Below, in pieces: positions 16,124-47,827 of a stretch of 64,000 bases of DNA. Both the position numbers and the translations under genes were made by a program. The DNA lies in NCBI GenBank assembly GCA_023436205.1, contig JAEZKC010000055.1, positions 9,542-73,541 of the forward strand, given 5' to 3'. Each line of letters starts with the position of its first letter. Positions within the stretch are counted from its first letter, which is position 1. The DNA is from Fibrobacterota bacterium (lineage in GTDB: Bacteria > Fibrobacterota > Chitinivibrionia > Chitinivibrionales > Chitinispirillaceae). Below the pieces are notes generated by a model. That model ran no database searches. It saw only the letters and a program-made list of their open reading frames with translations, and was not told the origin of the DNA.

Positions 16124-16164
16124 TGGAAGTTCCGGGCAAGAGCGGCAGCGCGTCAGTTTTAGCC

Positions 16165-16253
16165 GTGAACTGACAGACTCTGATGACTATTTTCGCTGAT
16201 TTTACAGTGCGGGAGAAGGTACTGGTGACAGACAAGGCGTCTTCGCCGTTAAC
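16165..16253 (+). repeat. Dispersed ~90-nt element, copy A
   Basis: cgtgaactgacagactctgatgactattttcgctgattttacagtgcgggagaaggtactggtgacagacaaggcgtcttcgccgttaac. It shares the 18-mer AGGCGTCTTCGCCGTTAA with 5 other copies and a 25-mer with copy D. Confidence 0.85.
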
Positions 16254-16323
16254 AGAAAAAATTTTTCCTAAACTTTTCCACATTTCTGCCGATCTTCACT
16301 ATAACGCACTTTCAGGAGGTTTT

Positions 16324-16497
16324 ATGGATCCTGTTTCAATCGCCCGCAGCGCAGCATCAGTCGACCAGATGTTCAAAGTCCTTCAGTCCTCCCAGGCCCA
16401 GGTGACCGAAATGTCTGAAAAGCTTCTCAGGGTTGCCGTGGAGGCCGCCCTCGGAAAGGAAGCCGGTAAAGGCGAGCTGATCGACCTTATCGCCTGA
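16324..16497 (+). CDS. Small hypothetical protein (57 aa)
   Basis: AGGAGG lies 5 nt upstream of the ATG (ctttcaggaggttttATGgat). Helical, Q/S/A-rich sequence MDPVSIARSAASVDQMFKVLQSSQAQ... The longer listed ORF from 16183 starts inside repeat copy A and is not credible. Confidence 0.5.
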   Translation: MDPVSIARSAASVDQMFKVLQSSQAQVTEMSEKLLRVAVEAALGKEAGKGELIDLIA

Positions 16498-16639
16498 TTC
16501 TTCACTGCCGCACAGCAAATACTATTTTAAAGCTTCGCGGCAGCTCCTCCGCAGAGTCTGACTCCTTTTCCAAAGTCCCGCTCACTAACGCCGGTTCTGC
16601 TTCGTATTATGCCGTAGTTTTTGCTTCTATTAAGGATAT

Positions 16640-18049
16640 ATGCACATGAAAACGATCGGGCGGGACCTCACGGAAGGCAGCATTCCCCGTCACCTGCTGT
16701 CTCTTGCGATCCCCATGCTTATAGGAAACCTGCTCAATACCGGCTACAGCATCATCGATGCCATGTGGATCGGGCGAATGGTGGGCAGGGAGGCTATCGG
16801 AGCCATTGCGGTGAGCTTTCCGGTAGTGTTTCTTTTCGTGGGGGTGGCAAACGGGGCGACATTGGCCACCACTATTCTGGTTTCTCAGTTTTTCGGTGCC
16901 AAAAATCACACCATGGTCCGCCGTACCGTGGGTACCTCCTTCAGTCTGGCGCTTATCCTGGGGGTGGTGTCTGCCGCCGCCGGGATTATGCTTTCGGGGT
17001 CTATCCTTAAGTGGCTGGGTACGCCCGAATCGATCATGCCGCTGGCCTCCTCTTATCTGAAGATTGCATTTCTGGGATTCCCGGTCATGTATCTGAGTTT
17101 TCTGGTGACCTCGATTCTGCGCGGTGTGGGGGATACCCGTACCCCTCTTTATTTCATGGCCGCGGGGGTAGTGATCAACGCGGTGCTGGATCCCCTCTTT
17201 ATTATTGGCATAGGCCCTCTTCCCCGCATGGGGCTGGATGGAGCCGCCTGGGCATCCATTATCTCCGCCTTCGCCGCGGTTCTTCTGGGCACCCTATATC
17301 TCAACAGCAAGGGAAGTGATTTTGCCTTCAATCCGGCCAAACTATCCGCCGATAAAAAGGTTGCCAGGCTTATATTTTCCATCGGGTTGCCATCCATGAT
17401 CCAGCAGTCGGCCGTGTCGCTGGGGATGGTGTTCATTGCTTCATTTGTAAATAAGTTCGGAGCCGTGGCCGCTGCAGCCTACGGAGCCGCAGGGCGGATC
17501 GATTCGGTGGCGTTTCTCCCGGCCATGTCCATTGGTCTTTCGGTTTCCGCCATTACCGGGCAGAACCTTGGGGCAGGCAAGGTGGATCGGGTGCACAGCA
17601 TTTTCAAATGGGGCCTGCTCATGACCGCCTCGATTTCCCTTTTCCTTTCCATTTTCTTTCTTTCCATTCCCGATCTTCTGCTTTCCATCTTCACCACCGA
17701 TCAGGAAGTGATCGCCATCGGCAGAAACTACCTGCGGATCGTGGGGCCATCCACTCTCTTTTTCGCCATCATGTACGTTTCTAACGGTGTTATCAACGGG
17801 GCCGGTCACACGCTCACCACACTGGCCTTCACTATCTGCGTCCTGTGGGGGGTGCGTATTCCCATGGCTGCGTTTCTATCCCGCACCTTTTTGGGTATCG
17901 AAGGGATCTGGATCGCTTTTGCGGTAGGGTTTTTCACTATCATGTGCGTGAGTCTCAGCTGGTATTTTTCCGGGCGATGGAAAAAGCCGGTGGTCAGGGC
18001 CGGGCTTAAAAACGCAATAGCCGCCGAACCTGCATCCGCGGAAGCCTGA
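16640..18049 (+). CDS. MATE-family multidrug/toxin efflux transporter
   Basis: 469 aa and about 12 TM helices. MATE-type N-terminus (LTEGSIPRHLLSLAIPMLIGNLLNTGYSIIDAMWIGR) with an internal duplication. Confidence 0.85.
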   Translation: MHMKTIGRDLTEGSIPRHLLSLAIPMLIGNLLNTGYSIIDAMWIGRMVGREAIGAIAVSFPVVFLFVGVANGATLATTILVSQFFGAKNHTMVRRTVGTSFSLALILGVVSAAAGIMLSGSILKWLGTPESIMPLASSYLKIAFLGFPVMYLSFLVTSILRGVGDTRTPLYFMAAGVVINAVLDPLFIIGIGPLPRMGLDGAAWASIISAFAAVLLGTLYLNSKGSDFAFNPAKLSADKKVARLIFSIGLPSMIQQSAVSLGMVFIASFVNKFGAVAAAAYGAAGRIDSVAFLPAMSIGLSVSAITGQNLGAGKVDRVHSIFKWGLLMTASISLFLSIFFLSIPDLLLSIFTTDQEVIAIGRNYLRIVGPSTLFFAIMYVSNGVINGAGHTLTTLAFTICVLWGVRIPMAAFLSRTFLGIEGIWIAFAVGFFTIMCVSLSWYFSGRWKKPVVRAGLKNAIAAEPASAEA

Positions 18050-18078
18050 ACCGACAAGGTTTGAAGAAAGCTGTTCTG

Positions 18079-18168
18079 GTTAACGGCGAAGACGCCTCGA
18101 CTGTCACCTGGCGTATCTCCCGCATGGAAGCATTAGCAATCTTAGCGAAATGAGCTCGTGCTTCACGA
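18079..18168 (-). repeat. Dispersed ~90-nt element, copy B (left half diverged)
   Basis: The plus strand reads gttaacggcgaagacgcctcgactgtcacctggcgtatctcccgcatgg...cacg. The reverse complement aligns to the family consensus. Confidence 0.8.
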
Positions 18169-18257
18169 TTTTTGGATCGGAAAGAGGGCCGATTTCGCTA
18201 TCCAGAGTTAAAATTGCCCCCTTTTTTTCGCGCTTTTTCGTTCCCCTCTTCCACTTC

Positions 18258-18292
18258 GATATTCAGGATTCGTTATTCGATATTCGATATTC
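18258..18292 (+). repeat. Heptamer array GATATTC AGGATTC GTTATTC GATATTC GATATTC upstream of an OMP gene
   Basis: Read directly. It lies about 112 nt upstream of the ATG at 18404 and is followed by an A-run. Confidence 0.85.
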
Positions 18293-18403
18293 AAAAAATC
18301 TCTTCCCTCCCTGCTCTGCTCATCCCCGTTTTCCGGCATGCAAATCGCTAGTTTCTTCTCTCATGAGTGCTGAACCGTTTCACGTTTCTACGAGGAGGAG
18401 CTT

Positions 18404-18856
18404 ATGACGGCACTGAAGAGAAGTTTCCTGGCGGCGGCGATTTCGGTGATTTCCCTATGGTCTGTGGCCGGGGCTATTGGTGTTGGAATTCCTTTTGGTT
18501 TGCAGGGGGGGCCTGAAGTTGGAGTCCGACTCCATTTTACCGATTTATACGCGCTGAATGCTTTTGTTTCTTTCAGCGCAGCCGGAAGTCAGTCAGATTT
18601 TGTGGTCAATCTAGATAATATTTTCTACATTGCAGAAGAGGGTAACCTTAAGCAGTATTTAGCCGCCAATATCAGTTCCGATTTTGACCGGTTGCTTGGT
18701 ACAGCCGGGTTATATGGGCTTCAGTACCGGTTTAATGACTACCTCGACGTTTATGGCCAGTTGGGGTTGGGACTTTTATTTCAGGAGGGTGCCGACACCC
18801 AGGTCAGCACCACCAGAAGCGGCCTGGGGGTCATTTTCTACTTGGTGAGAGAATAG
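18404..18856 (+). CDS. Small outer-membrane beta-barrel protein (150 aa)
   Basis: GAGGAGG SD, signal peptide (..AAISVISLWSVAGA), and an alternating beta-strand pattern rich in G/Y/F. Confidence 0.6.
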   Translation: MTALKRSFLAAAISVISLWSVAGAIGVGIPFGLQGGPEVGVRLHFTDLYALNAFVSFSAAGSQSDFVVNLDNIFYIAEEGNLKQYLAANISSDFDRLLGTAGLYGLQYRFNDYLDVYGQLGLGLLFQEGADTQVSTTRSGLGVIFYLVRE

Positions 18857-18884
18857 CGCCAACAGTTACAGTCTTCCGTTCTGA

Positions 18885-18911
18885 AAGCCCGGCCTCCGCC
18901 GGGCTTTTTTT
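18885..18911 (+). terminator. Rho-independent terminator
   Basis: AGCCCGGC-ctcc-GCCGGGCT followed by TTTTTTT. Confidence 0.85.
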
Positions 18912-19073
18912 ATCAAGCGGGGGCGGGCCTCGGTTAAGTCCGCCTAATCAGGCGCTTAGCTCTTGTGAGGTGTGCGATTCTAATCGGTTATATTCGGATG
19001 CGGGGACCCTTAACGTGCTTATCGGGTACTCTTAGCGCAGGACACAAGATGCTGGCTTTCTCAGGTCCTCGCT

Positions 19074-19162
19074 CGTGATTGATAAACTCCGATGACTATC
19101 TTCGATAAGGATCCATAGCGGGAGAGAAATCTGGTGACCTGAGAGGCGTCTTCGCCGTTAAC
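19074..19162 (+). repeat. Dispersed ~90-nt element, copy C
   Basis: cgtgattgataaactccgatgactatcttcgataaggatccatagcgggagagaaatctggtgacctgagaggcgtcttcgccgttaac. Confidence 0.85.
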
Positions 19163-19267
19163 AGAAAAAAATGTCTTCAGAACCACCTGACCAGTGAGGA
19201 TTACATTTTGACTCCGGTTGACCTATTGTGTGCGGGTCTAGTGGATCGCCCGCTTCGCGCCGGTCCA

Positions 19268-19296
19268 TAAAAAAGGGGCGGATTCCTCCACCCCTT
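19268..19296 (-). terminator. Rho-independent terminator of the 254-aa OMP gene
   Basis: The minus strand reads AAGGGGTGGA-ggaa-TCCGCCCC followed by TTTTTTAT. Confidence 0.8.
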
Positions 19297-19322
19297 AATG
19301 TGAATCATAATGCCCATATCGT

Positions 19323-20087
19323 TTAAAACAGCCACAGCTTAAGTCCGGCTCTAATACCCCAGTTGTTCCCCGGAATATTGGGAGGAGGATCGCGGTCCTG
19401 TACATCTTCCTCGTAATAGGTGTCACCAGGGGCGTAGAGGTCACTAGTGTTGCTTTCCATTCTGGTTTCCTTGAGCTTGAAATTCATGCTTTCAAAACGC
19501 ACTTCTCCAAAAGCGGAGAGCAGATCAGACATTGGTAATGTGAATCCTGCCACGCCGATAAAACCCAGTGATGCGGGTGTAACATTCTTAAAAACCGCTT
19601 CATACGTTGTGGTGGTCTGAGCCTGAGTGGATACCAGGGTATTGGTGAAGCTTGAAGTGGCGAAATTAAGTCCCAAGCCTACCCCCACATAGACATCGAG
19701 AAGTTCCAGTGCTTCGAAGTGAGGTGCGATCAGGGTCTTTATCCCCCAAGAAAAATAGCTGTAATCACTGGTAAGATCATTTTGTGTGACACCCGAACTG
19801 CTGCGGGTTTTGATCTCCGGTGATGGCCATCCGAAAGACATGTCCACCGAAACCCGGGTCTCAAGGTTCTCTGCGGCCATGTACCCCACACCCAGTTCCA
19901 GCTTGGCACCGTGCCCCAGATTGAGAAAATGGTCGTTGGTTTCCTGGTTCTCATTTGAGGTCCCCAGGTAATAGCTTCCCATTCCGAAGCCGTAGCCGAT
20001 GTCTCCAAACAGATTGAGGGTGTTCTGGGCTGATGCCCCCAGTGCTACAACGAGCACCGCTAAACAAAGACGGGTGACACTTTTCAT
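19323..20087 (-). CDS. Outer-membrane beta-barrel protein (254 aa)
   Basis: GGAGGAG SD, signal peptide (..LVVALGASAQN), beta-strand periodicity, and a C-terminal ..GLKLWLF. Confidence 0.7.
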   Translation of the reverse strand: MKSVTRLCLAVLVVALGASAQNTLNLFGDIGYGFGMGSYYLGTSNENQETNDHFLNLGHGAKLELGVGYMAAENLETRVSVDMSFGWPSPEIKTRSSSGVTQNDLTSDYSYFSWGIKTLIAPHFEALELLDVYVGVGLGLNFATSSFTNTLVSTQAQTTTTYEAVFKNVTPASLGFIGVAGFTLPMSDLLSAFGEVRFESMNFKLKETRMESNTSDLYAPGDTYYEEDVQDRDPPPNIPGNNWGIRAGLKLWLF

Positions 20088-20186
20088 GACTCCTCCTTCA
20101 CAGGGAAAGTATGTAATATTAATTTTCGATTTCCTATTTTCATATATAATATGGGCCCGCTATTTTTCTACCCCATACCAATTTTT

Positions 20187-20214
20187 GATTTGGGATTGGC
20201 GATTTCGGATTGTC
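20187..20214 (-). repeat. Heptamer array (gene sense: GACAATC CGAAATC GCCAATC CCAAATC) upstream of the 254-aa OMP gene
   Basis: Read directly. It lies 100-127 nt upstream of the start at 20087 and is followed (in gene sense) by an A-run, mirroring the array at 18258-18292. Confidence 0.75.
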
Positions 20215-20254
20215 TCCTATCCGCACTAATGCCTACCTCTATCACCAGTCTCAG

Positions 20255-20384
20255 TCTCCGGCCTCTGACCTCTGACCTCCGACCTCTGACCTCTGACCTC
20301 TGACCTCCGGCCTCTGACCTCCGGCCTCTGACCTCCGGCCTCTGGCCTCCGGCCTCTGGCCTCTGACCTCCGGCCTCCGGCCTC
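20255..20384 (-). repeat. Tandem array TR2: 17-18 heptamers CCTCTGA/CCTCCGG. The reverse complement gives the 14-mer GGCCGGAGGTCAGA.
   Basis: Read directly. It is the same unit as TR1 with one substitution, in the opposite orientation. It overlaps the stop codon of the GH57 gene (20383-20385). Confidence 0.9.
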
Positions 20385-21999
20385 ACTCTTCCCCATACAC
20401 CCCGTAATCAATCTCCGGAAACAAATTATCATGCTCCTCAAGAAGCCTCAGAAACTCCTCATCCACATTTCCTCGCTTCACCTCTTCATAAAGACGCAGA
20501 AAATTGGAAATGTGCTCTTTTGTGCGACGTTCGGCATACTGCACCGTGGTGCCGGTTTTCATTATAAACGCCCAGTCGCTCGATTGGGCCAGAAGGAGTT
20601 CTCGGGCCATCTGGTTGAGTGCTCTGCGAAGAATCCCCTGGGCATTTCTGAACTCTCTGGCGCATTCCACCATGCGGTCTTCCATCCGGTGAAGATGCCG
20701 ATAGATCCAGTCATTGGTTTCATTGAGCCAGACTTGAGAATAACCGCCCTCTCCCCAGCTTGAGAACGAGGGGGCGGCGGTCTGGTTTTCCGGGTAGAGT
20801 GCAAGATAGTCGGACGGGGTGATCAATTTATATGTATTCTGCTCGAGGGCACTTTTTCTGATCAGGTAGTTCAGCCAGTCCGGACCCTCAAACCACCAGT
20901 GTCCGTAAAGTTCAGCATCGTAGGGCGCCACGATACACGGTTGTCTGTCCATGAACTGTTTTGCGTTTGTAATCTGGCCCTGTCGGTTGAACATGAAATT
21001 CGCAGCGTGCTCCGCCGCCACTCTGAGCGCTTCCTGGCGGTTGTAGGGGAGTTTGTCGGGACTGCTTTTGTCAGTTATGCGGCTGTATTTGATTCCGGTA
21101 TTGATCCGAATACCCGCCGGGTCGATATAGGGTTTTATATATTCCATGTCAAGATCAAACCCGATATCCTTGTGAAACTCCCTGTAGGAGGGGTGACCTG
21201 GGTAGCCCACCTCGGCACTCCAAACCGAGCGTGACGATTCCACATCGCGGCCGAAGGCCGCCACAGGTGCCTCTTTACAGAAAAGAGGGGCGAATACTCC
21301 GTATTGCGGTCGGGGATCGGCATAGAGTATCCCGTGAGTTTCCATAAAGAAGAAACGGATTCCTGCATTGTAAAGCATCTTTTCCAGCCCGGGATAGTAG
21401 CCGCATTCCGGAAGCCATATTCCCCTGGGCTTTTTACCGAAAAAACGTTCATAGGACTGAACCGCCACCTCTATTTGAGCCCGCACTGCATTGGGATTTT
21501 CCTGCATAATGGGCAGAAAACCATGGGTTGCCCCGCAGGTGATTATCTCAAGAACCCCCGCATCCTGAAGTGAGCGGAAACCATTTAGAATATTACGATC
21601 ATAATTCTCTTCGAAAATGTATTTACACTGTAGAAACCTTTCCAGATACATCCGGGCGTTCCTGCTCGTTTGTTCATCATACCTGGTGCGCTTGATTTCT
21701 TTTTGGGCAAGTTCGATTAATCTGTCAATGTAACGGACGTATCTTTCCTGTAAAAGCTGGTCGCTGAGCATCGAGCAGAGCGGGGGAGTGAGCGACATGG
21801 TGATTCTGAAAGGGACCTTGTCACTGAGCAGATTGTTGAAAATTGCAAGAAGCGGTATATATGTTTCAGTGATCGCCTCAAAGAGCCAGTTCTCCTCCAT
21901 CATGTAATCTGTTTCCGGGTGGCGGACGTAGGGGAGATGGGCATGAAGCACGATGCAGAGGAAACCGTTCGGTGGCATCTGTGCGGTGCTGTTGGTCAT
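20383..21999 (-). CDS. GH57-family 1,4-alpha-glucan branching enzyme
   Basis: GH57 N-terminal motif FLCIVLHAHLPYVRHPE..EENWLFEAITETYIPLL, plus WLPECGY and the helical C-terminal domain (LAQSSDWAFIM). Confidence 0.85.
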   Translation of the reverse strand: MTNSTAQMPPNGFLCIVLHAHLPYVRHPETDYMMEENWLFEAITETYIPLLAIFNNLLSDKVPFRITMSLTPPLCSMLSDQLLQERYVRYIDRLIELAQKEIKRTRYDEQTSRNARMYLERFLQCKYIFEENYDRNILNGFRSLQDAGVLEIITCGATHGFLPIMQENPNAVRAQIEVAVQSYERFFGKKPRGIWLPECGYYPGLEKMLYNAGIRFFFMETHGILYADPRPQYGVFAPLFCKEAPVAAFGRDVESSRSVWSAEVGYPGHPSYREFHKDIGFDLDMEYIKPYIDPAGIRINTGIKYSRITDKSSPDKLPYNRQEALRVAAEHAANFMFNRQGQITNAKQFMDRQPCIVAPYDAELYGHWWFEGPDWLNYLIRKSALEQNTYKLITPSDYLALYPENQTAAPSFSSWGEGGYSQVWLNETNDWIYRHLHRMEDRMVECAREFRNAQGILRRALNQMARELLLAQSSDWAFIMKTGTTVQYAERRTKEHISNFLRLYEEVKRGNVDEEFLRLLEEHDNLFPEIDYGVYGEE

Positions 22000-22712
22000 T
22001 TCCGTTTCTCAGGGCGCTCGCTTGATGAGACTGTGGAACTTGAAAAATAAGCGGAAAGTTGAGTTGACAAAATTTCCGGATCTATGGCGGAAACACCGGG
22101 AATACCGGGTAACATTTGAGCAACTGATGAATCTCTGCCGGCTGAGAGCACCGTGAGAGCATCGGTATTAACCTTTGGCTTTTTCTCCGAAGCTTTCTCA
22201 GAGGCGGGCTTGAGCGCAGGTTCGGGAATTTCCACCTTTTTCGATGTCAGGAAAGGGAAAAAACCGTAACGGTCATTTTGAAGTCCGTACTGTGCATGGT
22301 ACAGTTTTCCGCTCTCTGGAACTTTCATATACACTCTGCTTGCGGGGCCGACGTGCTGAGCAACAGCTTCTTGAACCTGCTGTCGTTCCCGCTCAAAATT
22401 ACTTGTAAAGGTTTCCTGTATTCGTAAAGCATCCTGTCCATACATGTATCTGCCGCTGGTCTGTTCAGCCATCACCTTCTGCGGTGCTTCCCAGTACACG
22501 TACATCCATTGAGGGTCCCGGGGGATGGCTCTAATGAAAGAATCATCGTACTTCTCGGGAATCGAGGTGCTGAACGAGTATTTAGGTCCGGTGTTCTGCT
22601 GCTCAGGTTCCCTTTTTGTCTCTTCTCTCGCCTGTTTCCGGCCATGGCGCTTGCGTCGGAGTTTTTTCTGCAGATGCAGTTGCGCTCGGCTTTTCGGTTG
22701 AGAGACTGACAT
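21996..22712 (-). CDS. DUF4912-like protein translationally coupled to the GH57 enzyme
   Basis: IRAIPRDPQWMYVYWE matches my recollection of the DUF4912 core. 4-nt overlap with the GH57 start. Basic N-terminus. Confidence 0.55.
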   Translation of the reverse strand: MSVSQPKSRAQLHLQKKLRRKRHGRKQAREETKREPEQQNTGPKYSFSTSIPEKYDDSFIRAIPRDPQWMYVYWEAPQKVMAEQTSGRYMYGQDALRIQETFTSNFERERQQVQEAVAQHVGPASRVYMKVPESGKLYHAQYGLQNDRYGFFPFLTSKKVEIPEPALKPASEKASEKKPKVNTDALTVLSAGRDSSVAQMLPGIPGVSAIDPEILSTQLSAYFSSSTVSSSERPEKRK

Positions 22713-22796
22713 TGTTTAAACCCGCTAATTAAGAAAACAACTGATTTCGCTAACTTTTTTCGACCCGCACTGAACTACTCAAAATGATAAATGGGC

Positions 22797-24002
22797 TCAG
22801 TAGCTGGGGCCTTTTTTCTGAAACCAGTTGCGTCCTCCGTTTATCCCCAGCTGTACGCTGAAAAGGTTTTCGGAATAACCGGAGTAGCGGGAATCTGTTC
22901 TCCTGCCTGCTTCAAAGACTATATCGATCAAACCGCCGTCTTCAGAAATTGGCAGTCCGGCCCCCAGGGAAAGCGAGTATTCCTGAGTTCCATCCACGGG
23001 CAGCTGATTGTATCGTAACCCGGCTCTGTAGTGCACTGTTTCCACATAGGGGGCTGTAAGCTGATCGGGTGAAGGAATATAGCGAGTACCGGCAGAAATC
23101 TGATAGGTTCGTCTCAGAGGACGGAAAAGGTCAATGTCGGATTTGAATCTTTCCCATAAAGTCGCCTGAATATCTGCCGCAAACAGCCACTCGGGACTGT
23201 AGTGGTATCCCACACCCGCTCTGATTGAAGGTGGCAGATGAAGAAAAAGCTTCTGGTCACTTCTTTCGGTGGTGTCTGCTTTAAGGTATTCCGTCTGATA
23301 TTTTCCGTTATCATCATAAAATGAATATTCCCCGGCAACACCAACTGAAAACTTGCCGATGGGCATCAGCACACCCATTTTGATACCGTTGGTTGCAGAT
23401 TCCATGACAGAGTTTTTGGAAATCGAGCTTTCAATATTTACTGAATCAACTTCGATGACTGATCTTCTGGTTTCGCTGGAGGTGATATCCGAATAGATGC
23501 GTTCGTAAAGAATGCCTATGCTGGGACCTTTCCCAATTTTATAGCCCCATCCACCCTGCCAGGCTGTTGACCCGCCGCTTCTCTGGATTTCGGTATAGAT
23601 GGCTCCCAATCCGCTTTGATCTTTGAGCTGAAATCTGAGTGCAGCCTCGCCTCTCTTCTCAATTGCAAAGCCGAAATTTCCCGCAAGACCAGCGGGGATA
23701 ATAAGAGAAAGAAGCTTGGGGCTGTAATCGTTAAGCAGGCTCTTTGAACTGCCCTGCTTTATCTGCAAATAGTCCAGGGATACCACTCCCGAAAATGCGG
23801 AACGGTTTTGAATAGCCATATTTGCCGGATTGAGGGTTAATCCGAAGTTCTCATCGCTTATGCCTGTACCCGCTCCACCCATGGAACTCGAGGGGCCGGT
23901 GGTTGACTGAACCGGAAGACCGGTGGGCAATCCTAATCCGATAGGGCTTTGGGCCTGGGTGGTGGCAAAGATGATCAGTGCTAATGAAACAACCTTTTTC
24001 AT
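22797..24002 (-). CDS. Outer-membrane beta-barrel protein (401 aa), family not recognised
   Basis: Signal peptide MKKVVSLALIIFATTQAQS, with a long series of amphipathic beta-strands rich in G/Y/S. Confidence 0.6.
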   Translation of the reverse strand: MKKVVSLALIIFATTQAQSPIGLGLPTGLPVQSTTGPSSSMGGAGTGISDENFGLTLNPANMAIQNRSAFSGVVSLDYLQIKQGSSKSLLNDYSPKLLSLIIPAGLAGNFGFAIEKRGEAALRFQLKDQSGLGAIYTEIQRSGGSTAWQGGWGYKIGKGPSIGILYERIYSDITSSETRRSVIEVDSVNIESSISKNSVMESATNGIKMGVLMPIGKFSVGVAGEYSFYDDNGKYQTEYLKADTTERSDQKLFLHLPPSIRAGVGYHYSPEWLFAADIQATLWERFKSDIDLFRPLRRTYQISAGTRYIPSPDQLTAPYVETVHYRAGLRYNQLPVDGTQEYSLSLGAGLPISEDGGLIDIVFEAGRRTDSRYSGYSENLFSVQLGINGGRNWFQKKGPSY

Positions 24003-24016
24003 ATATTCTTGACTCT

Positions 24017-31256: not shown

Positions 31257-31311
31257 ACGGGGCATTTCGCAAATGTTATTTTTATTCTGCCGTCATTGAT
31301 TTGCGGCAGAT

Positions 31312-31638
31312 ATGTTCACAATGAAAGGAAATCAGGTTGCAATGGCTATCCCTCTTAAAGAAAAACGCGTGTCGACTTTGATTCTGGTTGTCCTTGTCGG
31401 AATATTGATTGGCTCATATCTCAATGCGGTAATCCAGATGCTGCCCGGTGGCGAAAACGTGGTGCGCACCTTCTTTACCTACACAGTGCCTTTCGGGATA
31501 GGCGATTTCGAGCATAACACTCCGGTGCTTATCGATCTTAATGCGATCCGCTTTCAACTGGGTTTCCAGATTCGTTTCAGCCTCCTTTCAATTCTGGGAA
31601 TTGTGCTGAGCCTATACTTTTTCCGTTGGTACAAATAA
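31312..31638 (+). CDS. Small membrane protein (DUF4321-like)
   Basis: Two hydrophobic helices flank a short beta-rich loop, ending ..LYFFRWYK. The start may be the internal ATG at 31342. Confidence 0.45.
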   Translation: MFTMKGNQVAMAIPLKEKRVSTLILVVLVGILIGSYLNAVIQMLPGGENVVRTFFTYTVPFGIGDFEHNTPVLIDLNAIRFQLGFQIRFSLLSILGIVLSLYFFRWYK

Positions 31639-31662
31639 GACTTTTACTGAAAGGTTTGCCTG

Positions 31663-33099
31663 ATGGCTTTCTTTGAACAACCTGTTTCCGATATAGTAAA
31701 GCGCATAATAAAGAGGGAAGTTTCCTGCAGTAACCTCGTGCAATCGGCTCTCGATACCATTTCGCAAAAAGACAAAAACCTGCATTCCTTCATCTCCATG
31801 CAGAATGAAGAGGCACTCAAACGAGCTGATGAGCTTGACAGCCTTCCCCAGGAACAAAAAGAGAAAATGCCGCTTCTGGGGATTCCGGTTGCTGTAAAAG
31901 ACAATATCTGCACCAAGGGTGTGGCTACCACATGCGCTTCCAAAATGCTTCAGAATTTTGTCCCCCCCTACGATGCTTCTGTTGTGGAAATGCTCAGGGA
32001 TGCCGGTGCCGTTATTATCGGCAAAACCAATCTTGATGAGTTTGCAATGGGTTCCAGCACCGAAAACTCCTTTTTCGGGCCCACACTTAACCCCCACGAT
32101 GAAAGCAGAATCCCGGGGGGGTCCAGTGGAGGCAGCGCTGCGGCAGTCGGCGCCGGCCTGGTGCCTGTCGCTCTGGGTTCAGACACCGGCGGTTCCATCC
32201 GCCAGCCTTGCAGCCACTGTGGCGCAGTCGGCCTGAAACCCACTTATGGGCGGGTGTCCCGCTACGGACTCGTCGCATTCGCATCCTCCCTTGACCAGAT
32301 CGGCCCCATGGCTAGCGATGTGCGTGATATCGGCCTTTTGCTCTCGGTTATTTCACAGGCAGACAAAAGAGATTCAACCTGCGCCGGTAAACCCTATATC
32401 GATTCACCTGAACTCTATACTACCGATGTTAAGGGAATGCGTATTGGAATGCCCGCTGAATATTTCGGAGATGGTTTATCATCCGAAGTGCGGGGGAAAA
32501 TCGAAGAACTCCTTAAGAGATTCAAAGACGGCGGTGCGGAGATCGTTAATATCTCTTTGCCTAATCTTCAGTACGCCATTGCAACCTATTATATCGTATG
32601 TACCGCTGAGGCATCTTCGAACCTGGCCCGCTATGACGGAGTGAAGTATGGTTTCAGGGCTCCGGATGCTAAATCACTTTCGGATATGTACATGGAAACC
32701 CGCGAGCAGGGCTTCGGATCCGAAGTCAAGCGCCGTGTCATGCTTGGAACTTATGTGCTGTCTTCAGGTTATTACGATGCCTATTACCTCAAGGCCGCCA
32801 GGGTTCGCACGTTGATAAGCAAGGATTTCAGAAACGCATTTGGTTCCTGCGATTTCATCGTTTCGCCGGTCACTCCCACTCCTGCATTTAAAATAGGGGA
32901 GAAGACTGAAGATCCTCTGCAGATGTATTTGACAGATATCTATACTGTATCTGCCAATCTTGCCGGTATACCGGGGATTAGTGTTCCCTGCGGAACTGTC
33001 GATTCGCTTCCGGTCGGTGTGCAGTTCATGGCTCCTGAATGGCGGGAGGATGTTCTGCTCAAGGCTGCTTTCGCTGCACAGGAACTCTCATCCAGATAG
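31663..33099 (+). CDS. gatA: Asp-tRNA(Asn)/Glu-tRNA(Gln) amidotransferase subunit A
   Basis: Amidase signature [25 protein letters not shown]. GatA-type termini. Confidence 0.9.
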
Positions 33100-33107
33100 G
33101 GGAGTGC

Positions 33108-33635
33108 ATGCATTCACGTTTCCGGAACTATGCCGCTGTGCTGTTGGGCATTCTGGCTTATGTTCTGTTTTCCGGAAACGGCTGCGCACCTTCGGTCCGC
33201 TACGCACGGGATAATCCCCCCGAAATGGAATGGTTCCCTTCCGAAAAGAACAGTTCATCCCCAGTTGCATCCGCTAAACTTCAAAAAGCAGTTTCTTCCT
33301 ATCTGGGGGTAAGATACAAATATGGCGGCATGAGCCGGGAGGGGCTTGACTGTTCAGGTTTTGTCAGCCTCGTTTACAAAGAAGTCTATGGAATGTCGCT
33401 TCCCCGCTCATCGGGTAAACAGTGGAAAGAGGGGCGTATTGTACCGCCCGCCACCGCAGTTCCCGGTGACCTCATTTTTTTCAGAGGCGGAATGTTCAAT
33501 GGGATAAATCATGTGGGAATTTACATGGGCGGGAACAGATTCGTTCACGCCAGCAGCTCTAACGGGGTAATCTACAGCACCATGACAGATCCCTACTATT
33601 CCCGTCGTTTCGCAGCCATAAGGAGAATGTTTTGA
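33108..33635 (+). CDS. NlpC/P60 (C40) cell-wall peptidase lipoprotein
   Basis: Lipobox (LFSGNGC), catalytic GLDCSGFV and HVGIYMG motifs. The start is set at MHSRFRNY. Confidence 0.8.
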   Translation: MHSRFRNYAAVLLGILAYVLFSGNGCAPSVRYARDNPPEMEWFPSEKNSSSPVASAKLQKAVSSYLGVRYKYGGMSREGLDCSGFVSLVYKEVYGMSLPRSSGKQWKEGRIVPPATAVPGDLIFFRGGMFNGINHVGIYMGGNRFVHASSSNGVIYSTMTDPYYSRRFAAIRRMF

Positions 33636-34504
33636 ATACGGTTACGTTTGCCGGAGAAAAAGGATCATACAGTGAGCTCGCAGCACTTGAGTATTTTGGA
33701 CCATCTGTTGACCTTCGCAGTGTTTCCGAGTTCGAGGACGTTTTTAAAAGCGTAAAGCAGGGAAAAACCACCTTCGGCATTGTTCCCATCGAAAACTCTC
33801 TGGCCGGAAGCATTCATCAGAATTATGATCAGCTTCTTGAAAGCAAACTGCACATAGTGGGAGAAATCTACTTGCGTATTAACCACTATCTGATTGCCAA
33901 TAAGGGAGCAACGCTTAAATCAGTAAATAAGGTGTACTCCCATCCGCAGGCCCTTGCTCAATGTAAACAGTATCTGAAGAAATTCCATCGCGGCTCTTTA
34001 GTGCCGGTTTCAAACACCGCTCTGGCAGTGAAAAAAATCCGTGATGAAAAGCTTGTAGATGCCGCAGCCATCGCATCCATGCAGGCTGCCATCGATTTTG
34101 ACATGGATGTGCTCGATTCAAATATCGAAGACAACCCGTACAACACCACCCGTTTTCTCATTATAAGCAGAAAACCGGTCAAGCCGGCATCGGGGGAAAT
34201 AAAAACCTCGGTGGTGTTCTCCGTAAAAAACATGCCCGGTGCGCTGTTCAAGGCTCTGAGCGTGTTTGCGCTCCGGGACGTCGACCTCTTTAAAATCGAA
34301 TCAAGGCCAGTTCATGGTGTCGGTTTCGAGTATCTCTTTTATTTGGACTGCAAAGGGGATATCAGAGACATCGCTTTAATGAATGCCGTTTCTCACCTCA
34401 AGGAGATCACCACGTTTTACCGGCTGCTTGGGTCGTATAATGTGGGCAAAGAGGTGCAGCCCAGATACAAAGGGAAAAGCAGAAAAAACAAAAAGCCCCG
34501 ATAA
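33632..34504 (+). CDS. pheA: Prephenate dehydratase with ACT domain
   Basis: VTFAGEKGSYSELAA.., SHPQALAQC and TTRF motifs, with a C-terminal ACT region (ALSVFALRDVDLFKIESRP). Confidence 0.85.
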   Translation: MNTVTFAGEKGSYSELAALEYFGPSVDLRSVSEFEDVFKSVKQGKTTFGIVPIENSLAGSIHQNYDQLLESKLHIVGEIYLRINHYLIANKGATLKSVNKVYSHPQALAQCKQYLKKFHRGSLVPVSNTALAVKKIRDEKLVDAAAIASMQAAIDFDMDVLDSNIEDNPYNTTRFLIISRKPVKPASGEIKTSVVFSVKNMPGALFKALSVFALRDVDLFKIESRPVHGVGFEYLFYLDCKGDIRDIALMNAVSHLKEITTFYRLLGSYNVGKEVQPRYKGKSRKNKKPR

Positions 34505-34517
34505 TGCTACCGGGGCT
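34478..34517 (-). terminator. Rho-independent terminator of rpmB (overlaps the pheA stop)
   Basis: The minus strand reads AGCCCCG-gtagcattat-CGGGGCT followed by TTTTGTTTTTTCT. Confidence 0.7.
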
Positions 34518-34541
34518 ACAATTCCAATTCACTGTCAGGGC

Positions 34542-34724
34542 TTAGGACTTGGCCATAGCCTTGAGGCACTTCATGCAGATTTTGATCCGCTTGGATGTAC
34601 CATTGACAACCTGCTTGATTGTGCGAAGGTTGGGATAGAATATTCTTTTGCTTACGTTGTGGGCATGGGAAATCGTGTTGCCCGACTGCGGGTGCTTGCC
34701 GCAAACTTCACATGTTTTGGACAT
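34542..34724 (-). CDS. rpmB: 50S ribosomal protein L28
   Basis: MSKTCEVCGKHPQSGNTISHAHNVSKRIFYPNL is the canonical L28 N-terminus. 60 aa. Confidence 0.9.
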   Translation of the reverse strand: MSKTCEVCGKHPQSGNTISHAHNVSKRIFYPNLRTIKQVVNGTSKRIKICMKCLKAMAKS

Positions 34725-34892
34725 ATATCCTCCAGATAGCTATTTTAGTTTCCCGAACAAACCGCTAATATAGCTAATGCATCGCTGCAAGTCAAAGCTA
34801 AACTAATGAATTAGATAAATGTTTGGTCCAGTCAAATTATCGGTTTGACATCATTTATATTTTTTCTAACAACTTAAAAAAGGTATAAGCAA

Positions 34893-35552
34893 ATGCTGGA
34901 GAATTTAAAACCTGCTTTTAATAATGTATTACGACCGATAATGAAAGTCTTCGCCTGGGCGGGAGTACATCCCAATCATCTTACCATTGCGGGGGTGGCG
35001 CTGTTTGGTGCTGCCGGGTATCTGGCCTCCACCGGGAAATGGCACTGGGCCTTGGGAATGCTGATCGCCGGTGCTCTCATGGATGGGCTGGATGGTCAGC
35101 TCGCGCGGGAATGCGGCAAAAAGTCCGTTTTTGGAGCAATCCTCGATTCAAGCTGCGATAGAATCACTGAAATGCTGCTTTTATTGGGTTTACTGGTATT
35201 CTACACACATCATTCCCTGTATAGCGGATGGGGTGTTTACCTCTGTTTTACCGCCATCTCCGGCTCTGTTCTGGTGAGTTATGTAAAGGCTCGCTGTGAA
35301 GGGGCTGGCGTGAGCTGCTCTCGAGGGCTGCTCCAGCGCCCCGAGCGTCTGATCCTTCTTGGTCTCGGCCTGCTTCTGGGCCCCAAGTCCATGGTCTGGA
35401 TTCTGGTTCTGGTGTCTGTTCTGGCCCTGGTCACCGTGATGGAGCGCCTCTTCATGGCCTCAGTCCAGTGCCGCTTCATTGATCAATCTAAAAATGCCGG
35501 CTCTTCAGGTTCGGGTGAGGCTCAAGCGAAGCAGTCCTCCGCCGAGGCATAA
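34893..35552 (+). CDS. CDP-alcohol phosphatidyltransferase family protein
   Basis: Motif DGLDGQLAR(x8)G(x3)D(x3)D (DGLDGQLARECGKKSVFGAILDSSCD) and multiple TM helices. The last ~9 codons lie in tandem array TR3. Confidence 0.8.
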   Translation: MLENLKPAFNNVLRPIMKVFAWAGVHPNHLTIAGVALFGAAGYLASTGKWHWALGMLIAGALMDGLDGQLARECGKKSVFGAILDSSCDRITEMLLLLGLLVFYTHHSLYSGWGVYLCFTAISGSVLVSYVKARCEGAGVSCSRGLLQRPERLILLGLGLLLGPKSMVWILVLVSVLALVTVMERLFMASVQCRFIDQSKNAGSSGSGEAQAKQSSAEA

Positions 35553-35659
35553 GGACTTTGTCCGATCTCGTGCATGCTGAGCAGTCCTCGGTCGAAGCAT
35601 GATCTGCCCGTTCCGTTCGTGCTGAGCAGTCCTCGGTCGAAGCATGATCTTATAATTTA
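35526..35659 (+). repeat. Tandem array TR3: about 2.8 copies of a 45-50-nt unit
   Basis: The exact 30-mer gctgagcagtcctcggtcgaagcatgatct occurs at 35576 and 35621. A diverged first unit (gcgaagcagtcctccgccgaggcataagga) starts at 35526. The array abuts repeat copy D. Confidence 0.85.
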
Positions 35660-35748
35660 TTAACGGCGAAGACGCCTCGTAGGTCACCAGTACCTTCTCC
35701 CGCACTGCAGCCTTATCAAAGATAGTCATCAGAGTTTATCAAACACGA
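35660..35748 (-). repeat. Dispersed ~90-nt element, copy D
   Basis: The plus strand reads ttaacggcgaagacgcctcgtaggtcaccagtaccttctcccgcactgcagccttatcaaagatagtcatcagagtttatcaaacacg. Confidence 0.85.
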
Positions 35749-35797
35749 GGTTTCGGAAATTTTGTCGGCAATTAATCCAGCTTTTGGGAATAAAAAG

Positions 35798-36694
35798 TTA
35801 AGTTGCGATTCTCCTCCGTAACTCATTAATGGCTTCCTTCGATAATCCTGTATACAGTGCTATATTTTCATCGCTTTCACCATTTTTGATCATCACTATT
35901 GCGATCTCGGTAGTTCTTTTATCTCTACCCTCGACTTTACCTTCGAGTTTACCCTCAAGCCTACCCTCATTTCTACCCTCTTCCTTCGCGGTATCCAATG
36001 AATTTTTAAGATCGCGATAGACCTTGAGGCTATCTTCATAGGCATCGATTTCTACTGGACTGAATTTGGCGATCTCGGCAATACTGAAAAGCTTCTCAAA
36101 CACCCGTTCCTGCAGTTTTGCCGGGCGGCTTTGAAGCTTCGGCAGATTCTTGAAAATATAGAGCCACTTATCGAAACGGGTTTCCAGCTCATCTTCACTT
36201 TTGTTGAAATTGGGCATTTGCAGATAAATAAAGGTGAGCTTATCGTAAAAAACATTTTTCTTATCTGTATCCATCAACTGTACATGGCTGACTATGGTTT
36301 TATCCCTGTTTTCATCTTCAAAGGTGAAATCCAGAATCGCAATCGTGTACACTGCTTTCAATTCATAGTCCCAGTCTCCCTGTTCAGCTTGTTCGGCTAT
36401 GGGAAACGTGGAATAATACACCGTTCTGTCCTTGAAAAAGCGTTGCTTTGTTTTCTGTATCTCAACAATAAATTTCTCGCCGCGGTCATTCTCACAGTAA
36501 AGATCGAATATCGCTTTCCGATCGATCGCAGTAGTACCGAGATATTCGGTTTTCTTATAGTTGAGATCTTTTATATGCTGCTCGCCTTTAAGCAGCTCGT
36601 TGAGAAAATCCATGAGCAGATCTTTATTGATCTCCTCTCCGAAAATCTTCTTGAATCCGAAATCGGTGAAAGGGTTTATGTACTTTTCTTTCAT
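35798..36694 (-). CDS. Rpn-family recombination-promoting nuclease / putative transposase (PD-(D/E)XK, PDDEXK_2-like)
   Basis: N-terminus MKEKYINPFTDFGFKKIFGEE..., then D..E.K-type core (IFDLYCENDRGEKFIVEIQK). C-terminal (L/V)EG(K/R) tetrapeptide repeats. Confidence 0.75.
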   Translation of the reverse strand: MKEKYINPFTDFGFKKIFGEEINKDLLMDFLNELLKGEQHIKDLNYKKTEYLGTTAIDRKAIFDLYCENDRGEKFIVEIQKTKQRFFKDRTVYYSTFPIAEQAEQGDWDYELKAVYTIAILDFTFEDENRDKTIVSHVQLMDTDKKNVFYDKLTFIYLQMPNFNKSEDELETRFDKWLYIFKNLPKLQSRPAKLQERVFEKLFSIAEIAKFSPVEIDAYEDSLKVYRDLKNSLDTAKEEGRNEGRLEGKLEGKVEGRDKRTTEIAIVMIKNGESDENIALYTGLSKEAINELRRRIAT

Positions 36695-36906
36695 GCTTAT
36701 ATCCAGGTATTTAGGCGATCTGGTTTGAAAAACACTGTTTTTCGGAGCGTAGTACTAAATTACGATAATGGGGGGAGAAGTGGTAAGGTTATTTAGGATA
36801 TTGCCTTCGTTTTGCTGGTTTCAGCCATTGTTTTTTTAAACTTATCTTGGTAGTCGAAAATTCCTGAAGAAAACAGAAAAAGTTAGTCCGTCCCCATCCT
36901 CAATCC

Positions 36907-37021
36907 CGTGGTCGATAGACTCCGGTCATAACATAGCAGGGAGACCCAAAGCCTGTCCTGTGCAAAGTTGAAGGGTCCGGAGATGCCTCCCCGCACCGGA
37001 CAGAGGCATCTTCACCGTTAA
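36907..37021 (+). repeat. Dispersed element, copy G (degenerate, with internal insertion)
   Basis: cgtggtcgatagactccggtcataacatagcagggagaccc...caccggacagaggcatcttcaccgttaa. The core 18-mer has 2 mismatches. Confidence 0.65.
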
Positions 37022-37026
37022 AGAAA

Positions 37027-37401
37027 ATGGTTTCGTTTTTTGAAAGCGAAACATGCCTTTCATTCAAACTCGCGGCTTATTTTGGAGAGATCATCAAAGC
37101 GGAAAAATGCGGTCACTGTTCCGTGTGCCTCTCGGGGAAACGAATGATGGAACCTGCGGCGGCACTTATTCCTGTAACTTCCCTGGATCTGCGGGACCTT
37201 ACTGAGCAATTTACCGCTTTGGCAAAAGACAAGGCCACCCCGATTGCCCTGACACGTTTCCTGTGCGGAATTACTTCGCCCATATTCACGCAACTTAAAG
37301 CCTCAAAGATGCGCGGGTTCGGATCGCTCGAGGAGTACCCGTTTAGCGATGTTATGTCGGCTGTTATGAAAGAGTTTGCCGAGCCTGTTTTGTGCAGATG
37401 A
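37027..37401 (+). pseudogene. 3' remnant of a RecQ-family helicase gene (Zn-binding/C-terminal region only)
   Basis: CLSFKLAAYFGEIIKAEKCGHCSVCLSG resembles the RecQ Zn-finger region (..YFGE..CG.CD.C). No helicase core precedes it, and the ORF begins 6 nt after repeat copy G. Confidence 0.5.
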
Positions 37402-37495
37402 TTATCAGGGTATCTTATTGACTTGATTCAGAATGGCGGCAAAGAGTTATCTGTTGCCGCCTGGTTTTGTCGAGGAGGGGAGTTTGATTTCACAC

Positions 37496-38476
37496 TCATT
37501 TGTTTACCGAAAACAGTTTCTTATTCGGTGGATACTTAGGGTAAGGTAGGGTTGAATTGAGTTTTTCCCCATTTAAAACTCTAAAATAAAGATTTACATA
37601 ATCCGCAGCCATCTTTTTCGCACTGAAGCACTCGGAAGCGTACTCATGGCAAATCTTGCCGTCATAGCCGGCGGCTTCCTTCACGGCTCTCACCAGTTCA
37701 TTCATGCTGTTCGAAACGAATCCAACCTCATTTGATATAAGTTCCGGCAGTGCTCCAAAACCTGTTCCGAATACAGGGCATCCGAAGTAAAGACTTTCGA
37801 TTATCGCCAGTCCAAACGGCTCGGGCCATAACACCGGAAAGATGAGTCCCTTGGATGTATTCAGCACTTTGTCTTTTTCTTCTCCTCCGATCATTCCCTT
37901 GAAGGTAACTTGAGGCGAAACGGTAAACCTGAAACCCATTTTGAAATTAAGACGTGTGCCACCTACCACGACCAGCTTCTCTCCCGCCTTCCGGGCAATT
38001 TTGATAGCCCCTTTTACGTTTTTCTTCCTCCATGCAGCATTACCTAAAAAGTGGAAATGTGTTCGTTTATTTTCAAGATCAGGTGTTGAATATTCACTCC
38101 AATCCAGCCCGTTATGTACAAAAACATCGGAGCTAAATCTGGATGCATGATCTTTGGATACGAAAACGGAATTTATGTGGAACTGAGCCGGGGCTTTATT
38201 GACATGAACAGTGACAATGGATGGCTTGCTAATATCTTCTCTGGGTGTGAAGTGGAAGTGAACAACGTCGCATTCCTCGGGGATCTGGTCGTTTATCGGC
38301 AAACTGCTGTTATATGGAACTATGGTCGCATGAGAGCATTTTGACCCGGGATCGGTCAGATAACAAACGTTATGGCCTAACTGAGAAAGCCCCTTCCCCA
38401 AACCCCATACAACTCTTTCGATTCCACCATAGGCCATAACCGGCATTTTTGATAATTCAACAATGCAGATGTTCAA
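37496..38476 (-). CDS. Glycosyltransferase family 4
   Basis: GGIERVVWGLGKGL.. at the N-terminus and EPFGLAIIESLYFGCPVFGT (E-x7-E region). Confidence 0.75.
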   Translation of the reverse strand: MNICIVELSKMPVMAYGGIERVVWGLGKGLSQLGHNVCYLTDPGSKCSHATIVPYNSSLPINDQIPEECDVVHFHFTPREDISKPSIVTVHVNKAPAQFHINSVFVSKDHASRFSSDVFVHNGLDWSEYSTPDLENKRTHFHFLGNAAWRKKNVKGAIKIARKAGEKLVVVGGTRLNFKMGFRFTVSPQVTFKGMIGGEEKDKVLNTSKGLIFPVLWPEPFGLAIIESLYFGCPVFGTGFGALPELISNEVGFVSNSMNELVRAVKEAAGYDGKICHEYASECFSAKKMAADYVNLYFRVLNGEKLNSTLPYPKYPPNKKLFSVNK

Positions 38477-38541
38477 ATCTTCCTCATTTCACATCATTAG
38501 GATTTATATGCGCAAAAGGTAAAATGCACAACCCGACTGGT

Positions 38542-38577
38542 AAAAATAAAAAAGGGCAGACCTTTCAGTCCGCCCTT
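38542..38577 (-). terminator. Rho-independent terminator
   Basis: The minus strand reads GGGCGGAC-tgaaag-GTCTGCCC followed by TTTTTTATTTTT. Confidence 0.8.
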
Positions 38578-38600
38578 TAAATCTCTTTTAATACTAACTC

Positions 38601-39050
38601 TTAGCGAGCCAGTCTCTCCATGGTTTCCTTGTCCACGTTCTCCTTGAGCGCATCTTTGAAAGAGCGGTCGAGAGTGATAGGGTCGGCATTAGGATCGTCC
38701 ATGTCGATAATGTACACCGGAGTGGGGTTATCGAGGTAACCGACAACTTCTGCGCTCTCGAACACAAATGATCGGCTCTTGGCATCGTTCTTCACCTTGG
38801 TGACCAGATCCTTCTCAATCCAGCCTTCCTGACCCGATGATGCTCTTACTTTAAGATGGTTTTTCTTGGTTTCGATAATAGTGAGATAATCGCTTGGGCC
38901 TACAGAAAAAATCGGACGCTCATACGCCTCTCTGATCTCGTTCTGGTAGATTCCCACATCATTCTTCGTCGGCTGAACCACCTTATCCTTCTGAGCGAAC
39001 ACGGTGACAGCTGCAAACGCAAGGATCAGTGACCACTTGCTTAAACGCAT
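38601..39050 (-). CDS. Secreted protein with SH3b-like region (149 aa)
   Basis: Signal peptide (..AAVTVFAQ). DYLTIIETKKNHLKVRASSGQEGWIEKDLV resembles bacterial SH3 domains. Confidence 0.45.
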   Translation of the reverse strand: MRLSKWSLILAFAAVTVFAQKDKVVQPTKNDVGIYQNEIREAYERPIFSVGPSDYLTIIETKKNHLKVRASSGQEGWIEKDLVTKVKNDAKSRSFVFESAEVVGYLDNPTPVYIIDMDDPNADPITLDRSFKDALKENVDKETMERLAR

Positions 39051-39273
39051 AATTAGCTCCTTTTGATGTTTTTCCAGTCGTTCGAAACCTTACTGTTTAG
39101 TATAATATTTTCTATTTTTAAAAGCAACAGCATCAAAATAAAAAACTTACAACTCTACCTACTTAGTGGCTACAGTATCCATAACTGTTCGTTTTATTGG
39201 ATTTCTTTTTAGCCATTATTAAGCTGCTTTTCATGCTCCTGTCCTTCGAAAAAAAGGTGAACTGGATTCCTTT

Positions 39274-39363
39274 GTTAACGGCGAAGACGCCTTGTCTGAC
39301 ACCGGGTATCTACCTCACTGGGAAGCCTCCGGTGTACATAGTCATCAGAGTTCATCAACCATG
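39274..39363 (-). repeat. Dispersed ~90-nt element, copy E
   Basis: The plus strand reads gttaacggcgaagacgccttgtctgacaccgggtatctacctcactgggaagcctccggtgtacatagtcatcagagttcatcaaccatg. Confidence 0.8.
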
Positions 39364-39418
39364 ACTGTCCAGAACGGAACTTTGGCCCCCGTAGTCGTAA
39401 ACCGGTCTGATCCGAATT

Positions 39419-39506
39419 CGTGATGATACACTCCGATCACTATTTTTGAAAATCCTTCAGTGCGGGAATTGGTGCCGGTGACCTGTAAGGCGTCTTCGCC
39501 GTTAAC
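39419..39506 (+). repeat. Dispersed ~90-nt element, copy F
   Basis: cgtgatgatacactccgatcactatttttgaaaatccttcagtgcgggaattggtgccggtgacctgtaaggcgtcttcgccgttaac. Confidence 0.85.
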
Positions 39507-47801: not shown

Positions 47802-47827
47802 GTATTCTCCCGATCGATTGAATTCAT

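Follow-up and report, generated by a model that had tools for sequence, protein, structure and literature searches.

Why should one short sequence recur seven times between the genes of a single chromosomal segment of a Chitinispirillaceae bacterium (Fibrobacterota), and what kind of element is it? To answer this question, we analysed a 64,000-nucleotide stretch of contig JAEZKC010000055.1 (assembly GCA_023436205.1, positions 9,542 to 73,541 of the forward strand; hereafter the window), for which a first-pass annotation had listed a family of intergenic repeats between about 16 and 40 kb. The repeat family is real and has not been described before; in general terms, it is one of the bacterial interspersed intergenic repeats or MITE-like elements (MITE, miniature inverted-repeat transposable element). 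We tentatively favour reading its copies as the ends of a non-autonomous mobile element mobilised in trans, to which we give a little less than an even chance. The seven copies, named A to G, are as follows, each with its highly conserved core.

16160-16258, plus strand: copy A, core at 16235-16252, a solo copy
18073-18184, minus strand: copy B, core at 18080-18097, left member of the pair B-C
19064-19167, plus strand: copy C, core at 19144-19161, right member of the pair B-C
35655-35760, minus strand: copy D, core at 35660-35677, the best-conserved copy and left member of the pair D-G
36893-37026, plus strand: copy G, core at 37004-37021, degenerate, with two core mismatches and a 27-nt insertion, right member of the pair D-G
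39268-39375, minus strand: copy E, core at 39275-39292, left arm of the E-F foldback
39408-39512, plus strand: copy F, core at 39488-39505, right arm of the E-F foldback

The 18-mer core, AGGCGTCTTCGCCGTTAA, has six exact matches in the window and one with two mismatches (copy G), against an expectation of 0.01 in shuffled sequence, and none of 100 shuffles gave seven. An nhmmer profile built from the seven copies recovered exactly these seven in the 64 kb, with E-values from 6e-29 to 2e-14; no eighth copy was found, the next-best profile match having E=0.63. Thus the core search, the shuffles and the profile bear out the positions and strands first assigned to the copies, the identity of the core in six of them and the absence of others from the rest of the window. 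The exact 25-mer common to A and D and the better conservation of the right half likewise hold. The unit of ~90 nt given originally is too short: homology among the seven copies extends over ~90-110 nt in alignments, and refined ends give ~105-110 nt (134 nt in copy G owing to its insertion). The left edge is TTTCCGA-like in B, D, F and in L012, a copy found in the metagenome-assembled genome (MAG) of another species, and the right end carries a (C)AGAA tail after GTTAAC. Comparison of the flanks revealed no similarity between copies beyond the ~110-nt limits, and hence no larger repeat unit. Because the flanks are unrelated and L012 is a clear homologue in a different species, the family is not a local segmental duplication, a possibility that had been raised against it. 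All copies are indeed intergenic when judged against credible genes. One gene caller placed a 104-codon open reading frame (ORF) at 16183-16497 whose ATG lies inside A, in a frame that is not conserved across the copies; a 57-codon ORF at 16324-16497, which has no Pfam match, is the more credible call.

Conservation is very uneven along the unit. Among the seven copies with an intact core (six from the window and L012), the mean pairwise identity outside the core was 0.55 (range 0.44-0.75), and only 14.6% of the columns there were invariant compared with 18 of 18 in the core, which holds a GGCG-N4-CGCC dyad within its invariant 18-19 bp. The remaining conservation is block-wise with variable spacers, and the copies resemble one another in a mosaic fashion: a 31-mer is common to A and E and the 25-mer to A and D, whereas C and D share their left halves.

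Public data contain extremely few members of the family outside the window. The exact core was matched 12 times in a set with one genome per GTDB species (596 Gb), 12 times in JGI metagenome contigs and not at all in IMG/VR; by a rough estimate, ~17 chance matches are expected for an 18-mer in 596 Gb. We took 23 of the 24 matches as chance, since they were core-only and mostly lay in apparently coding sequence. The sole true relative was L012, in the Chitinispirillaceae MAG C1M08_1. This copy, which the related MAGs GCA_046546375.1 and GCA_046540735.1 contain, matches profile positions 24-106 (E 7e-10); a polysaccharide-export gene precedes it by ~150 nt, and ~200 nt separate it from the end of the contig. 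The repeat is absent from the loci examined in other relatives, including Chitinispirillum alkaliphilum, and neither blastn searches of plasmid and phage collections nor a literature search on the core sequence gave a match. The best reading of this distribution is that it is patchy and that the repeat is restricted to one lineage, the Chitinispirillaceae of the Fibrobacterota.

The main structural clue is the arrangement of the copies. In map order their strands run A plus, B minus, C plus, D minus, G plus, E minus and F plus, a perfect alternation (p=0.016 for seven elements), and all seven are confined to 23 kb of the 64-kb window (clustering p about 0.011). The first-pass annotation saw no consistent orientation, which is correct relative to the flanking genes and incorrect for the copies among themselves, where the alternation is strict. 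Six of the copies form three inverted pairs with the invariant core outward, namely B-C (18080-19161), D-G (35660-37021) and E-F (39275-39505), while A and L012 have no partner within the available sequence. The E-F pair is a foldback of 231 bp from core to core, enclosing only 55 bp; its 32-nt tips are 84% complementary, its arms of ~100 nt are ~56% alike beyond these tips, and it folds with z=-5.1. The same arrangement was found in two independent assemblies of the region, which differ from the window only in tandem-array copy number; the ENA metagenome assembly ERZ28604730 contains a contig, LEMO22-1 scaffold_38 (118 kb), that matches the window. Alternation and inverted pairing point towards the behaviour of transposon ends or recombination sites.

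Two junctions, one beside copy G and one around the E-F pair, tie the element to DNA breakage and joining as far as sequence comparison can tell. The features concerned are given here.

37027-37401, plus strand: recQ remnant that starts in the second half of the Zn-binding domain (RecQ residues ~367 on)
39146-39577, no strand assigned: 432-bp block of extra DNA between gcvPB and the SH3-like gene, E-F lying in the middle

The ORF at 37027-37401 matches only positions 31-66 of the 66 in the RecQ_Zn_bind profile and aligns with RecQ residues ~367-412, and in the in-frame translation the recQ homology starts within ~3 nt of the outer end of the G core. The missing ~365 codons are not beyond D, and the helicase core is absent from the window. 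Judged from these alignments, the recQ gene is cut exactly at the terminus of the element. At the second junction, gcvPB and the SH3-like gene are 527 bp apart in the window. In four relatives (the L029-31 species, L039 and L040) this spacer measures 92-95 bp, and their SH3-like proteins share 72-76% identity with the window protein. The extra 432 bp start immediately behind the stop codon of gcvPB, and beside the SH3-like gene the ancestral TTTTTGATG...TTGCTTTT segment is preserved intact. The comparison of filled and short spacers is made against relatives that are only ~70-76% identical in protein.

Taken together, these features are best fitted by ends of a non-autonomous mobile element: junctions located at the core end, inverted pairing, a strictly intergenic position, clustering and patchy occurrence. 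The failure of the RNA- and protein-level alternatives described below counts for the same reading. From this pattern we infer transposition, an enzyme responsible for it and a role of the core as a cleavage or recognition site. In such a scheme, the invariant ...AGGCGTCTTCGCCGTTAA(C) would be the terminus recognised and cut by a trans-acting enzyme encoded outside the window, and the semi-conserved subterminal blocks CTCGTGA, CTCYGATGACTAT, TGCGGGAGA and GGTGAC may serve as additional protein-binding sites. The element would insert between genes, whether alone or as an inverted pair of the kind seen in the 231-bp E-F foldback. Both the truncated recQ beside G and the enlarged gcvPB-SH3 spacer could have arisen through an insertion and later deletion or rearrangement next to it. 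Directly oriented neighbours would cause loss of the essential genes lying in between, so that the alternating pattern would remain; we propose that selection against direct neighbours has helped to produce the alternation in this way. Nothing so far requires a new mechanism.

Several observations weigh against this reading. Seven copies from two species keep the core unchanged although the rest has strongly diverged; neutral decay of old insertions would also hit the core, and the pattern suggests either selection site by site or recent insertions from many diverged source copies or master lineages. No near-identical copies showing recent movement are available. TTAA or GTTAAC is conserved at each end, and a target-site duplication could not be distinguished from this part of the repeat; the flanks showed no further direct repeat. 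Among the scanned ORFs of the 64-kb window there was no transposase or recombinase gene besides two Rpn-family genes. The extra block in the gcvPB-SH3 spacer, at 432 bp, exceeds the E-F pair in size. Finally, the gene bracketed by B-C is ancestral at its locus (see below), indicating that these two copies are separate elements rather than the two ends of one inserted unit.

Known bacterial elements offer partial parallels. MITEs and foldback elements include Correia/NEMIS in Neisseria, RUP in Streptococcus pneumoniae and ERIC/IRU in enterobacteria. Like these, the window repeat is short, non-coding and intergenic, lies in either orientation to genes and has best-conserved inverted termini. MITEs are mobilised in trans, as we propose here, and E-F has their overall architecture. 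The repeat differs from them in that most copies are single rather than compact inverted-repeat units, the E-F arms being only ~56% alike beyond their tips, and in that neither a target-site duplication nor a parent insertion sequence (IS) was identified; its copies are also far more diverged than those of typical MITE families, yet the terminus is invariant. In mobile insertion cassettes, IS ends surround non-transposase genes, and B-C and D-G are similar in that inverted ends each bracket one gene, for an outer-membrane protein (OMP)-like protein and an Rpn nuclease respectively; the ancestral position of the B-C gene shows a difference, as that pair did not move in as a unit. REP (repetitive extragenic palindromic), BIME (bacterial interspersed mosaic element) and REPIN elements, which are mobilised by RAYT transposases, resemble the family in their intergenic site, alternating units, mosaic structure and short motif kept within a lineage. 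In contrast with them, the window unit is not a palindrome, its sole dyad being 4 bp plus 4 bp, its alternation is on the scale of kilobases rather than tens of bases, and its copy number appears low. No RAYT/IS200-like (Y1 transposase) gene was found among the scanned window ORFs, and the family lies outside the definition of REP and REPIN elements. As the first-pass annotation had said, it is not a classical REP hairpin, the unit being non-palindromic and, except in G, folding no better than shuffles.

The strongest rival explanation, which we nevertheless consider unlikely, is a cis-element maintained by the host, that is, either a selected DNA site for a sequence-specific protein or a motif in RNA, with a 19-nt core that binds a protein or pairs with another RNA. 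Such a site would act between genes whatever their orientation. It would account directly for an 18-mer that is invariant in copies from two species while the rest stands at ~55% identity, and for block-wise conservation with variable spacers; moreover, A (57-codon ORF, MatE), E (SH3-like gene) and G (recQ stump) lie in the sense orientation upstream of genes. The tests at the RNA level argue against it. Rfam gave no match at gathering thresholds, nor at E<=5 around the copies, in agreement with the original view that no described non-coding RNA family was recognisable, and the window holds no tRNA or tmRNA genes. The compensatory changes that the same annotation had proposed looking for are lacking: RNAalifold gave only an invariant 4-bp GGCG/CGCC hairpin on either strand with no covariation. 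The folding energies of single copies were like those of shuffles (z -0.75 to +1.0), copy G excepted. A helix built by hand, pairing the core GGCGTC with the hexamer that precedes GGTGAC, appeared plausible in four minimum-energy folds and was rejected on controls, since it was 61% paired compared with 56-58% in controls slid along fixed alignment columns. With no Rfam match, no covariation and shuffle-like energies, a structured RNA on either strand was rejected.

The copies do not behave as gene signals either. No consistent sigma-70 promoter was found in them, and by eye a sigma-54 promoter fitted on neither strand; only three of the seven point at a same-strand gene, whichever strand is read. 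The SH3-like gene downstream of E retains its own promoter, TTGCTT-N17-TATTAT, which is conserved in the relatives beyond the insertion. On these three grounds a promoter was rejected. A terminator was rejected because the stem is 4 bp and has no T-run; together with the lack of a fixed orientation to genes, this upholds the earlier judgement that the unit is not a simple terminator or leader. A small protein-coding gene was also rejected: the reverse 'VNGEDAS' and forward 'MTIF...ASSPL' frames contain stops or a frameshift in C, D and E and have no start in B, F and G, and the variable columns per codon position (8/8/10) show no 3-periodicity. For a regulatory site, furthermore, a recQ truncation exactly at the element end is unexpected. 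The absence of the element from the orthologous loci in relatives also counts against this reading.

A less probable alternative is that the copies are inversion sites, the core being the crossover for a site-specific recombinase encoded elsewhere, with inverted neighbours flipping the segments between them and direct ones having been purged as they would remove essential genes. The perfect alternation of the seven and the invariant 18-19 bp core with its GGCG-N4-CGCC dyad are in keeping with this, the mosaic similarity is consistent with exchange between copies, and the 55 bp inside E-F are in the size range of an invertible switch. Invertons and shufflons offer the closest comparison, examples being the Bacteroides invertible promoters, which share one inverted-repeat consensus, and the R64 shufflon with its seven 19-bp sfx sites; here too several sites with one ~19-bp core are inverted around segments of very different lengths. 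The differences are considerable. There is no tyrosine or serine recombinase gene among the scanned window ORFs, the flanked segments carry whole housekeeping genes with no obvious pay-off from flipping, and conservation extends to ~90 nt beyond the core. The available assemblies show one arrangement, with no second orientation of any segment, and conservative recombination alone cannot make the recQ stump.

Decaying mobile DNA does not usually combine an invariant end with ~55% identity elsewhere, and this is the one feature behind which something more interesting could lie. The invariant 19-mer might be the target of a dedicated enzyme, for which the Rpn nuclease between D and G would be the most interesting candidate, or the copies might form a shufflon-like network of multiple inversions over housekeeping genes; we regard these two possibilities jointly as long shots, slightly less probable than the inversion sites just described. 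Whether Rpn proteins are transposases is unsettled (PMC5350276), and the bracketing of an Rpn gene is worth checking in this light, although the evidence presented here argues against the link. The two Rpn-family genes of the window are given below.

35798-36694, minus strand: 'putative transposase' gene of the Rpn family, PD-(D/E)XK type (Pfam PDDEXK_2, E 9e-76), lying between D and G
44907-46049: second Rpn-type gene (Pfam Transposase_31, E 3e-27)

The layout of D-G is IS-like over 1.36 kb, consisting of a repeat, 48 nt, an ORF of 897 nt, ~200 nt and a second repeat, with the cores outward and copy D 48 nt past the stop codon of the Rpn gene. This architecture would be expected if D-Rpn-G were an autonomous insertion sequence with the Rpn nuclease as its transposase and the other copies as MITE-like derivatives, and the Rpn family has long been annotated as 'putative transposase'; many close Rpn homologues also lie on ~1.1-kb contigs, which suggests that the gene is multi-copy in such genomes. 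The closest homologues of the bracketed gene, at loci L038 (86% identity), L026 (85%), L027 (75%) and L028 (70%), show neither a profile match to the repeat nor flanking inverted repeats, and the DNA homology between the window and these loci ends exactly at the ORF ends. The second window Rpn gene has no flanking inverted repeats, and G is the most decayed copy of all.

The pair B-C provides a further argument, as it brackets a 150-amino-acid gene (18404-18856) as tightly as D-G brackets the Rpn gene. A full-length homologue of this unrelated gene (31% identity, E 4e-25) is present in Chitinispirillum alkaliphilum ~1 kb downstream of MatE in the same orientation, with no repeat present. This syntenic homologue indicates that the 150-amino-acid gene is ancestral at the locus, and B-C was accordingly rejected as a cargo transposon or cassette. 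Since the bracketing of a single gene is thus a property of the family, it is no evidence for Rpn as the enzyme. With four homologous loci lacking the repeat and B-C bracketing an unrelated gene in the same manner, the Rpn protein was rejected as the dedicated transposase of the element; the gene bracketed by D and G is unlikely to encode the enzyme of the element, and we regard the autonomous D-Rpn-G insertion sequence as the least probable of the readings weighed here, very improbable in itself. Were the link true, D-Rpn-G would give the Rpn family its first gene whose ends or sites are defined, and it would explain the spread of the 'putative transposase' family.

Integron attC sites are imperfect palindromes with R''/R' core sites (RYYYAAC ... 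GTTRRRY), lie in one orientation and have an integrase nearby, and an attC site was rejected here because the orientation alternates, the unit is not palindromic, GTTAACM by eye misfits GTTRRRY and no integrase is present among the scanned window ORFs.

If the mobile-element reading is true, the family is a new interspersed repeat in the barely studied class Chitinispirillia (Fibrobacterota), and it has left visible traces locally: recQ is truncated, a spacer is enlarged, and inverted copies stand on either side of genes. In these MAGs the repeats flag points at which assemblies break and sites prone to rearrangement, and the invariant 19-mer can be used directly as a probe to find its recognising enzyme.

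The genes surrounding the copies are ordinary chromosomal ones, including glycogen and trehalose enzymes, MatE, the glycine cleavage operon, a gatA-like amidase, truA, holA and others. The best protein matches were to Chitinispirillaceae and Chitinispirillum (Fibrobacterota), with identities of at most ~76% for the housekeeping proteins checked. On its outer (right) side, copy A is followed by the 57-codon ORF with an AGGAGG Shine-Dalgarno sequence and then by MatE, whereas its inner side adjoins a 14-mer tandem array; copy B lies 30 nt past the MatE stop codon. The sequencing run that contains L038 also yields a gcvPB-SH3 locus matching that of the L012 MAG.

The second Rpn gene lies within ~3.9 kb of low-GC DNA (~0.40-0.45; 43954-47827) between gcvT and a DJ-1 gene, together with genes for a DUF3592 protein and a leucine-rich-repeat protein. 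DJ-1 is directly beside gcvT in the relative L029, so this segment looks like an inserted island. The C-terminal part of the second Rpn gene is a 42-bp (14-amino-acid) tandem repeat (45072-45248), of which the ENA assembly appears to hold approximately three more units, as estimated from alignment offsets. This difference recalls the variation in repeat number published for Rpn proteins (PMC10400941). At locus L026, from a related Chitinispirillaceae MAG, two Rpn (PDDEXK_2) genes stand in tandem at 1-221 and 286-1146.

Other tandem repeats lie close to the copies. A second repeat family consists of 14-mer arrays at 16004-16109 and 20250-20384, with units GAGGCCGGAGATCA and the near-identical reverse complement CCTCTGACCTCCGG. 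The two arrays are inverted, ~81% complementary over 100 nt, and bracket a 4.1-kb segment that contains A, MatE, B, the 150-amino-acid gene, C and a 254-amino-acid OMP gene; the ENA assembly has one extra 14-nt unit at 20297 relative to the window. Directly outside D (35519-35650) there are two and a half copies of a ~45-bp tandem repeat (TGCTGAGCAGTCCTCGGTCGAAGCATGATCT...), the first and diverged copy of which overlaps the 3' end of a CDP-alcohol phosphatidyltransferase gene. Five-unit 7-mer arrays were found on the inner side of B (TTCGATA, 18255-18292) and of the L012 copy (GCGAATA-like, L012 ~6185-6225), and the Logan contig of the region stops inside the TTCGATA array, at window position 18290.

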